64,000 nucleotides of DNA from the NCBI RefSeq assembly GCF_003018255.1, contig NZ_CP027440.1. The stretch is one strand, 5' to 3'. The notes under the pieces are model-generated. The model saw nothing but the letters and a program-made list of their open reading frames with translations. It did not search any database and was not told the origin of the DNA. Each line of letters begins with the position of its first letter. The first letter of the stretch is position 1. Both the position numbers and the translations under genes were made by a program. The DNA is from Escherichia coli (GTDB lineage: Bacteria; Pseudomonadota; Gammaproteobacteria; Enterobacterales; Enterobacteriaceae). Positions 393-7,624 of this stretch are shown here, piece by piece.

Positions 393-2093
393 GTGATTGT
401 TAAACGACCCGTCTCGGCCAGTCTGGCCCGGGCCTTTTTTTACATTGTGCTGCTGTCGATTCTTTCCACGGGTATCGCTCTGCTAACGCTGGCGAGCAGT
501 TTACGCGACGCTGAGGCTATCAATATTGCCGGATCGCTGCGTATGCAGAGTTACCGCCTGGGCTACGACTTGCAAAGTGGCAGTCCACAACTCAATGCAC
601 ATCGCCAGTTATTTCAGCAGGCACTGCATTCACCGGTATTAACCAATCTCAACGTCTGGTATGTGCCAGAGGCAGTAAAAACCCGCTATGCGCATCTGAA
701 TGCCAACTGGCTGGAGATGAATAATCGGCTCAGCAAGGGCGACTTGCCGTGGTATCAGGCCAATATTAATAATTATGTTAATCAGATAGACCTGTTCGTG
801 CTGGCTTTACAGCACTACGCCGAACGCAAAATGCTGCTGGTGGTGGCGATCTCCCTGGCTGGCGGCATCGGTATTTTCACGCTGGTCTTTTTTACTTTGC
901 GCCGCATACGCCATCAGGTGGTTGCCCCGCTGAATCAGCTGGTTACCGCCAGTCAGCGTATTGAACACGGGCAGTTCGACTCGCCGCCGCTGGATACCAG
1001 CCTGCCGAATGAGCTTGGCCTGCTTGCAAAAACCTTTAACCAGATGTCGAGCGAGCTGCATAAATTGTACCGTTCGCTGGAGGCGTCAGTAGAAGAAAAG
1101 ACCCGCGATCTCCACGAGGCCAAGCGTCGTCTGGAGGTGTTGTATCAGTGTTCGCAGGCGCTAAACACCAGCCAGATTGATGTGCATTGTTTCCGCCATA
1201 TTTTGCAGATTGTTCGCGACAATGAAGCGGCTGAATATCTGGAGTTAAATGTCGGTGACAACTGGCGGATTAGCGAAGGGCAGCCAAACCCGGAATTGCC
1301 GATGCAGATTTTACCGGTGACAATGCAAGAGACGGTTTACGGCGAACTGCACTGGCAAAATAGTCACGTTTCATCATCAGAACCGCTGCTTAACAGTGTT
1401 TCGTCGATGCTGGGACGCGGTTTGTACTTTAATCAGGCGCAGAAGCATTTTCAGCAGTTATTGTTGATGGAAGAACGTGCGACCATCGCCCGCGAATTGC
1501 ACGACTCGCTGGCTCAGGTACTTTCTTACTTACGTATCCAGTTGACGTTACTGAAGCGTTCGATACCGGAAGATAACGCCACCGCACAAAGTATCATGGC
1601 CGATTTCTCCCAGGCGCTGAATGATGCTTATCGGCAGTTACGCGAGCTGTTAACTACTTTCCGCCTGACGCTGCAGCAGGCGGATCTCCCCTCCGCGTTG
1701 AGGGAAATGCTGGATACGTTACAAAATCAAACCAGCGCCAAACTGACCCTCGACTGCCGTCTGCCAACCCTGGCGCTGGATGCGCAAATGCAGGTGCATT
1801 TGTTGCAAATTATTCGCGAAGCGGTGCTGAATGCGATGAAGCACGCCAACGCCAGCGAAATCGCCGTTAGCTGCGTCACCGCGCCGGATGGCAATCACAC
1901 AGTCTATATTCGCGACAACGGGATTGGCATCGGTGAACCGAAAGAACCCGAAGGCCATTATGGTCTGAATATCATGCGCGAACGCGCGGAAAGATTGGGT
2001 GGGACGCTGACTTTTTCACAACCTTCCGGCGGCGGCACGTTAGTGAGTATTAGCTTTCGCTCTGCGGAGGGTGAGGAAAGTCAGCTGATGTAA
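393..2093 (+). CDS. narQ: Nitrate/nitrite sensor histidine kinase
   Basis: ORF 378..2093; two N-terminal hydrophobic segments, H-box ELHDSLAQ and C-terminal ATPase region. Likely GTG start at 393 (MIVKRP...) for a 566-aa product. Confidence 0.9.
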   Translation: MIVKRPVSASLARAFFYIVLLSILSTGIALLTLASSLRDAEAINIAGSLRMQSYRLGYDLQSGSPQLNAHRQLFQQALHSPVLTNLNVWYVPEAVKTRYAHLNANWLEMNNRLSKGDLPWYQANINNYVNQIDLFVLALQHYAERKMLLVVAISLAGGIGIFTLVFFTLRRIRHQVVAPLNQLVTASQRIEHGQFDSPPLDTSLPNELGLLAKTFNQMSSELHKLYRSLEASVEEKTRDLHEAKRRLEVLYQCSQALNTSQIDVHCFRHILQIVRDNEAAEYLELNVGDNWRISEGQPNPELPMQILPVTMQETVYGELHWQNSHVSSSEPLLNSVSSMLGRGLYFNQAQKHFQQLLLMEERATIARELHDSLAQVLSYLRIQLTLLKRSIPEDNATAQSIMADFSQALNDAYRQLRELLTTFRLTLQQADLPSALREMLDTLQNQTSAKLTLDCRLPTLALDAQMQVHLLQIIREAVLNAMKHANASEIAVSCVTAPDGNHTVYIRDNGIGIGEPKEPEGHYGLNIMRERAERLGGTLTFSQPSGGGTLVSISFRSAEGEESQLM

Positions 2094-5200: not shown

Positions 5201-5370
5201 GCGTATTGCCAATGGCAACCAGCACGGGTGCCGGTTCCGGTGGTCAGCATGCGGTGGGTACTGGCGTAATGGGCGGGATGATTTCGGCCACTATTCTGGC
5301 TATTTACTTCGTGCCGCTGTTCTTTGTGCTGGTGCGCCGCCGCTTCCCGCTGAAGCCGCGCCCGGAATAA
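2257..5370 (+). CDS. acrD: RND family aminoglycoside/multidrug efflux pump, inner-membrane component
   Basis: 1037-aa ORF with AcrB/AcrD-type architecture (N-terminal [14 protein letters not shown], 12 predicted TM segments); position after narQ. Confidence 0.92.
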
Positions 5371-5375
5371 GCAAT

Positions 5376-5409
5376 AAAAAAGGCGACATGCTAATGTGTC
5401 GCCTTTTTC
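5376..5409 (+). terminator. Rho-independent terminator after acrD
   Basis: GC stem ggcgaca / tgtcgcc with loop, followed by a T-run (tttttc). Confidence 0.75.
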
Positions 5410-5468
5410 AACTTTCCGATTAAGAACCTGCTCAGCGGGTTCTTGCTGTTTGTACTTTGTCTCAGGAA

Positions 5469-5528
5469 TTACTTACGAAGCATAACTTCGATAAAGTCTT
5501 TCCAGTTCCCCAGTTCACGTTCAATCAT
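5469..5528 (-). CDS. ypfM: Small protein YpfM (19 aa)
   Basis: Minus-strand micro-ORF atg att gaa cgt gaa ctg ggg aac tgg aaa gac ttt atc gaa gtt atg ctt cgt aag taa (MIERELGNWKDFIEVMLRK) with GAGAGG Shine-Dalgarno upstream; below the ORF-track length cutoff. Confidence 0.75.
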   Translation of the reverse strand: MIERELGNWKDFIEVMLRK

Positions 5529-5890
5529 AACAACCTCTCTTATAATTATGGGTATTCTACGGAAACAATATACCGTGGTGAAGCTAATTTACTCGATTGC
5601 TGCGATGACTACCTCCGGGGGACAAACCTTATGTAAATACTATGGTCCTGCGGTGATAATTTGTATGTGATACACAGCAACATTTCGAGATATTCATACG
5701 GCATCTAATACTGATTTAATTCTGGTTAAAATACAGACAGATAACAAGATGAATATTCTTAATGTTTACGTTAAAAATGTTTAATGTTATTTAATAGTTG
5801 TTAATTTGAATACTTCGATAATGTTATATTTCCTGATGATCATTTGCAGGCAAAATGTTTTCACCCTTAAATGAGTATTTATTCTCATAA

Positions 5891-7396: not shown

Positions 7397-7423
7397 TGAG
7401 TGGTTCTGCAAGAGGAAATAAGC

Positions 7424-7624
7424 ATGGACTGGCTGGCTAAATATTGGTGGATTCTGGTGATTGTCTTTTTGGTAGGCGTCCTGCTGAACGTGATTAAAGA
7501 TCTCAAGCGCGTCAACCATAAGAAATTTCTCGCCAACAAGCCGGAGCTTCCCCCGCATCGTGATTTCAACGATAAGTGGGACGATGACGACGACTGGCCG
7601 AAAAAGGATCAACCGAAGAAGTAA
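7424..7624 (+). CDS. ypfN: Small membrane protein YpfN
   Basis: ORF 7400..7624; likely start at [21 protein letters not shown] (one TM helix) with an acidic C-terminus [14 protein letters not shown]; 66 aa. Confidence 0.8.

Follow-up and report, generated by a model that had tools for sequence, protein, structure and literature searches.

The ypfM locus between acrD and yffB

The DNA analysed here, referred to as the window, is a stretch of 64,000 nucleotides from Escherichia coli (contig NZ_CP027440.1). An initial annotation made from its letters had placed a 19-codon ORF on the minus strand at 5469-5528, in the spacer between acrD and yffB, and had named its product as the small protein YpfM. 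The frame was confirmed by translation: 19 codons followed by TAA (ATG ATT GAA CGT GAA CTG GGG AAC TGG AAA GAC TTT ATC GAA GTT ATG CTT CGT AAG TAA) encode MIERELGNWKDFIEVMLRK*. Both neighbours were found as described in the RefSeq annotation, in which the site is labelled "ypfM: protein YpfM" and lies between acrD and yffB. The features of the locus are as follows.

5469..5528, minus strand: ypfM coding sequence (translation, identity with K-12, RefSeq annotation, NCBIfam model NF033843, conservation of the locus)
5534..5539, minus strand: Shine-Dalgarno sequence GAGAGG, 5 nt (TTGTT) before the ATG
5554..5582, minus strand: sigma-70 promoter TTCACC-17-TAGAAT, with the -35 hexamer at 5582..5577 and the -10 hexamer at 5559..5554 (consensus scan)
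5365..5410, minus strand: ypfM terminator of the intrinsic type, in which a T tract follows a 14-pair stem-loop (5410..5375; scan and fold)
5421..5445, minus strand: extra hairpin of 11 pairs in the 3' UTR, in Escherichia only (E. coli and E. albertii; scan and fold)
5370..5489, minus strand: match to the Rfam family RF01409 (STnc250), reaching from the 3' part of the ypfM coding sequence across the 3' UTR and through the terminator (37.1 bits, E = 1.7e-05)
5443..5670, plus strand: 75-aa ORF starting with TTG, antisense to ypfM and most likely spurious (ORF list)

An 801-base query around ypfM had a match in 5,425 of the 5,426 complete E. coli genomes, many of them at 100% identity, and among the best matches listed the acrD, ypfM and yffB features lay under the query. 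In E. coli SMS-3-5 and K-12 MG1655 the RefSeq annotation assigns the equivalent 60 bases to a CDS named ypfM, which runs opposite to acrD and yffB. The gene of MG1655 is b4606 (YP_001165325.1, 2590807-2590866, minus strand). A difference between the reference YpfM and the window peptide would have spoken against the proposed identity; the translation of b4606 turned out to be the same in 19 of 19 residues. The K-12 gene occupies the same position between acrD and yffB, on the same strand and with the same flanking signals, and the 3 differences among the 321 bases aligned around ypfM are all non-coding. For a search of family models the peptide was extended by one C-terminal Ala to 20 aa. In this form it scored 59.2 bits against the NCBIfam equivalog NF033843 (small_YpfM), well over the cut-off of 33 and across profile positions 1-19 of 19, and the homologue of Yersinia nurmii, which is naturally 20 aa long, scored 32.1 bits, just below that cut-off. 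Searches of Pfam, PDB and PHROGs with the 20-aa form returned nothing meaningful, the best being a PHROG match with E = 0.31.

The window ypfM belongs to the YpfM family by its score against the model, its match with the type protein, its synteny and its length, and we are practically certain that 5469..5528 on the minus strand is the gene already known as ypfM. It offers nothing new, since a b-number, an NCBIfam model, a RefSeq annotation in the E. coli records examined and published evidence from Northern blotting and mass spectrometry already exist. The description of ypfM as hidden and missed by annotation holds for the length-filtered ORF track, but not for RefSeq, which already has the gene. 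The first 9 kb of the window contain 138 ORFs of at least 20 aa, a filter under which the 19-aa ypfM falls. At this density a 19-codon ORF is not significant by its length, so that the case for ypfM rests on identity and conservation. The initial annotation had nonetheless picked a genuine 19-codon gene from the raw sequence, with its product correctly named.

Conservation across the Enterobacterales

Loci from 80 distinct species of Enterobacterales were retrieved via the neighbour YffB, which avoids a bias towards the micro-ORF itself, and were scanned in six frames. Conservation in relatives, which had been proposed as a check, was borne out: a YpfM-like ORF with start and stop in place was present in 72 of the 80 loci, upstream of yffB and on the opposite strand, i.e. 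divergent from it. It was found in Escherichia, Citrobacter, Enterobacter, Klebsiella, Raoultella, Kosakonia, Leclercia and Lelliottia, and also in Cedecea, Buttiauxella, Kluyvera, Pluralibacter, Shimwellia and Mangrovibacter. Distant forms are those of [Erwinia] mediterraneensis (MIDTEMGNWKEFIEAMLRK), Dickeya undicola (MIEVELNNWKSFIDAMLRK) and Yersinia nurmii (MVDVELNTWKEFIESMLRKA). The 8 loci in which the six-frame scan did not find ypfM belong to three Erwinia, two Lonsdalea and three Enterobacteriaceae. The last three have different upstream ORFs, with no AcrD-like ORF seen; some of the others have no long ORF listed upstream, and Erwinia endophytica does have an AcrD-like gene, but no ypfM in the spacer beside it.

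The length is 19 codons throughout, except in Yersinia nurmii (20 aa) and in one Lelliottia that has lost the stop. Ten of the 19 residues (M1, E5, W9, K10, F12, I13, M16, L17, R18 and K19) are invariant out to Yersinia and Dickeya, and three further ones are at least 90% conserved. The variable positions are 4 (R/H/T/V) and 15 (V/G/D/A/N/Q/L/S). Pairwise comparison of 55 distinct coding sequences gave a mean difference of 0.27 at third codon positions versus 0.07 at first and second positions. The peptide is under purifying selection across the Enterobacterales, and YpfM is among the shortest and best-conserved proteins of this order. This conservation, together with that of the neighbouring expression signals, sets ypfM apart from a chance ORF.

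Promoter, leader and terminator

A promoter scan of the acrD-yffB spacer gave one sigma-70-like site, which lies on the minus strand and would place the start of the ypfM transcript about 19 nt before the ATG. A genomic-SELEX catalogue of constitutive RpoD promoters assigns this very pair of hexamers to ypfM (PMC3946193). In an alignment of 74 sequences both hexamers, the leader ATAATTATAAGAGAGGTTGTT and the Shine-Dalgarno sequence were among the best-conserved non-coding columns. The latter is nearly invariant across genera; the GAGAGG had been recognized at the outset (5539..5534), but its spacing to the ATG, which had been given as 6 nt, is 5 nt.

At the other end the terminator adjoins the convergent acrD at its stop codon (5368-5370). 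The layout of A tract, two stem arms enclosing a loop and T tract suggests that the terminator is bidirectional and common to ypfM and acrD. A hairpin with a T tract was present 30-120 nt after the ypfM stop in 73 of 75 sequences, and its stems change on both arms (GCGACA/TGTCGC, GCGGCC/GGCCGC, GCGTCC/GGACGC). Apart from this terminator, neither the sequence nor the length of the 3' UTR is conserved in the alignment, in which the hairpin at 5421..5445 was absent from the other genera. In the predicted mRNA of about 180 nt the Shine-Dalgarno sequence is unpaired and both 3' hairpins are formed (z = -3.5). The hairpin at 5421..5445 also looks like a terminator on the plus strand, downstream of acrD, and with the one at 5375..5410 it makes two tandem hairpins between the convergent acrD and ypfM.

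With these signals ypfM is a gene that stands by itself, transcribed as a monocistronic unit from the minus strand of the acrD-yffB spacer. A sigma-70 promoter of its own is followed by a predicted leader of some 19 nt with a GAGG-type ribosome-binding site, the 19 codons, about 60 nt of 3' UTR and the terminator that it has in common with acrD. A unit from promoter to terminator is established, as is translation of its mRNA, the evidence for translation and accumulation being that of the literature. Intact YpfM was detected by top-down mass spectrometry with 100% sequence coverage and a retained N-formyl-methionine (PMC12529367, 2025 MCP). In the same study it was also found by DIA and by PRM against synthetic peptides, was quantified by PRM and was found reproducibly in minimal medium with low Mn2+; an earlier detection by Schmidt et al. 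is noted there (PMC12529367). None of the papers found to mention ypfM reports a function, partner or phenotype, and 'of unknown function' is still the description in a 2025 review.

Further upstream in the spacer, at 5637..5644 (minus strand CATAGTAT), 109-116 nt before the ypfM ATG, lies an element of which the core CATA[G/T]T is conserved in most genera and the flanks are not. In several species CAT(A/G) follows about 11 nt later, in the manner of a direct repeat. The element could act as a -10 hexamer in either direction. In that of ypfM it would yield a longer transcript, closer to the Salmonella STnc250 RNA of about 220 nt than the one from the TAGAAT promoter; on the plus strand it could be part of yffB-dapE.

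Just upstream of the -35 hexamer a block at 5588..5606 (minus strand ATCGCAGCAATCGAGTAAA) is moderately conserved. It is a near-palindrome in Enterobacter, Kosakonia and Trabulsiella (e.g. CAATCAGAGTGATTG and AATCACAGTGATT), not in E. coli, and may be a regulator-binding site. A MarA motif from ChIP, ACCCAATTTGATAAA, has been reported in the Salmonella ypfM<>yffB spacer (PMC10268841). In the Salmonella record CP150497.1 (locus L083) this motif is at 540..554, midway along the divergent spacer: it lies 180-194 nt upstream of the ypfM ATG, and the start of yffB is about 220 nt away. The block at 5588..5606 was thus rejected as the MarA box of Salmonella.

Relation to the STnc250 RNA

The window matched RF01409 over the full model (1-94), but did not reach its gathering threshold of 42 bits. 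The low score is caused by an Escherichia-specific insertion, a stretch of 37 nt where the model has 13 nt; compared with STnc250 of Salmonella, the 3' UTR of E. coli contains an extra hairpin of about 24 nt (5421-5445). Despite the missed gathering score, the E. coli ypfM transcript is the orthologue of Salmonella STnc250. Its Rfam name presents STnc250 as an sRNA, but the RNA belongs to an mRNA. According to Sittka et al. (2008), who cite Wassarman (2001), STnc250 includes the small ORF that carries the name ypfM in E. coli (PMC2515195). On Northern blots it appeared as a stable, growth-phase-dependent transcript of about 220 nt, which was called a small mRNA, and it was enriched 4-fold in Hfq co-immunoprecipitation, an association reported for Salmonella only (PMC2515195). 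From the conserved TAGAAT promoter a transcript of only about 145 nt is predicted for Salmonella ypfM in L083. This difference makes an upstream start possible.

It could be argued from the match to STnc250, an 'Hfq binding RNA', that the locus is mainly or also a regulatory RNA, namely an Hfq-dependent base-pairing sRNA of which the small ORF is incidental or a second function. The stable short transcript and its Hfq enrichment in Salmonella (PMC2515195) fit such a role, as does the 3' end of ypfM, where an A/U-rich stretch, a terminator hairpin and a U tail are typical of Hfq binders. However, conservation concerns the peptide and not merely the RNA: third-position changes are about 4-fold commoner than changes at the first two codon positions, and both the start and the stop codon are retained. 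The peptide has been seen by mass spectrometry (PMC12529367), a 4-fold enrichment is modest and the transcript was named a small mRNA by those who described it (PMC2515195). A regulatory RNA at this locus is accordingly considered improbable. No conserved seed is visible in the 3' UTR, and because this region is unconserved apart from the terminator a double role of the mRNA as an Hfq-dependent regulator is disfavoured. We judge it quite unlikely that the transcript is a dual-function RNA, producing the peptide as well as an Hfq-dependent regulator, or that the peptide is a modulator of the AcrD efflux pump or of the yffB-dapE operon.

The antisense reading frame

The plus-strand ORF of 75 aa at 5443..5670, which had been noted as spurious, is present in the ORF list and is the only ORF that the length filter shows here. 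Were it the real gene, the minus-strand micro-ORF would be a chance antisense frame. Its frame stays open across the overlap with ypfM in every species compared. As the third codon positions of both frames coincide, it shares the substitution periodicity of ypfM within the overlap, and this periodicity cannot discriminate between the strands. For each observed variant it was determined whether it is synonymous or non-synonymous in the one frame and in the other. Of the 7 possible changes that are silent in ypfM alone, 5 were seen, versus 4 of the 16 that are silent in the antisense frame alone (one-sided Fisher p = 0.05, suggestive only), so the discordant substitutions favour the ypfM frame. 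Beyond the overlap the conservation in the alignment follows the minus-strand promoter and Shine-Dalgarno sequence and not a reading frame.

The antisense ORF starts with TTG and had no plus-strand promoter consensus match in the scan. It has no Pfam match, is without RefSeq annotation in SMS-3-5 and MG1655, and from stop to stop extends over 30-112 codons (median 65) in the different species. Because of this variable extent, the lack of a family or annotation and the minus-strand pattern of conservation, the 75-aa ORF is best read as spurious, which is well supported but not proven and agrees with the initial annotation. Given also the detection of YpfM by mass spectrometry (PMC12529367), it is hardly conceivable that the plus-strand ORF is the gene and ypfM the chance frame.

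Very short ORFs with a strong Shine-Dalgarno sequence are often leader peptides, and MgtL and TnaC stand in the same small-protein lists as YpfM (PMC12529367), but the reading of ypfM as a leader peptide or regulatory upstream ORF controlling a downstream gene is effectively refuted by gene order and has a negligible chance of being right: no minus-strand gene follows the conserved intrinsic terminator, the next gene, acrD, is convergent, and the whole peptide is conserved and accumulates to levels detectable by mass spectrometry (PMC12529367).

Properties of YpfM and its possible mode of action

The hydrophobic moment of YpfM at 100 degrees is 0.55, a value that 3% of shuffled sequences attain. 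When the peptide is drawn as a helical wheel with 100 degrees per residue, an arc of about 160 degrees takes in M1, F12, M16, W9, I2, I13, L6 and L17 as well as E5. The charged residues occupy the other arc, and the polar face has the variable positions 4 and 15 side by side. The ten invariant residues and these two variable positions are useful for the design of mutants. YpfM fell outside the single-transmembrane-helix class, having no hydrophobic stretch long enough to span the membrane. With a mean hydrophobicity (Eisenberg) of -0.12 and 8 of 19 residues charged it does not form a membrane span, and it is not a member of the class of small membrane proteins.

On the basis of the hydrophobic-moment calculation YpfM is predicted to be one amphipathic alpha-helix, with I2, L6, W9, F12/I13, M16 and L17 as its conserved hydrophobic face. 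Several small proteins of E. coli bind and modulate larger proteins, such as AcrZ with AcrB, MgtS with MgtA, and MntS. YpfM is like these in having fewer than 50 aa and its own promoter and terminator, in having been missed by classical annotation and in probably being a single helix. AcrZ and MgtS are transmembrane helices, whereas YpfM is not a membrane span; although it lies beside acrD, its link to AcrD is positional only. By analogy, YpfM might act in the cytoplasm or at a surface and dock via its conserved hydrophobic face on a larger protein, which it would modulate. Since the peptide is too polar for the membrane, this would be its most likely way of acting. Of the models for YpfM, a soluble or surface-bound amphipathic helix that docks onto a larger protein has the best support, but it is offered tentatively and may well prove wrong.

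Plasmid records and neighbouring genes

A search of PLSDB gave no evidence of mobile copies of ypfM, because the plasmid matches are chromosome fragments or mislabelled chromosomes with acrD-ypfM. Several of the 'plasmid' records with acrD-ypfM-yffB, among which is CP150497.1, are 1.4-5.4 Mb in size or are chromosome-like fragments. They include a 218-kb 'plasmid' of Salmonella Infantis, typed as IncFIB, with a chromosomal acrD-ypfM-yffB segment. Mislabelling or chimeric assembly is the probable explanation for these records.

Another gene for a small protein is ypfN (66 aa, YpfN family) at 7424..7624 on the plus strand, which comes after dapE in the RefSeq annotation of matching E. coli records. 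The ORF list contains it only as a longer ORF of 74 aa that starts with GTG, at 7400..7624.
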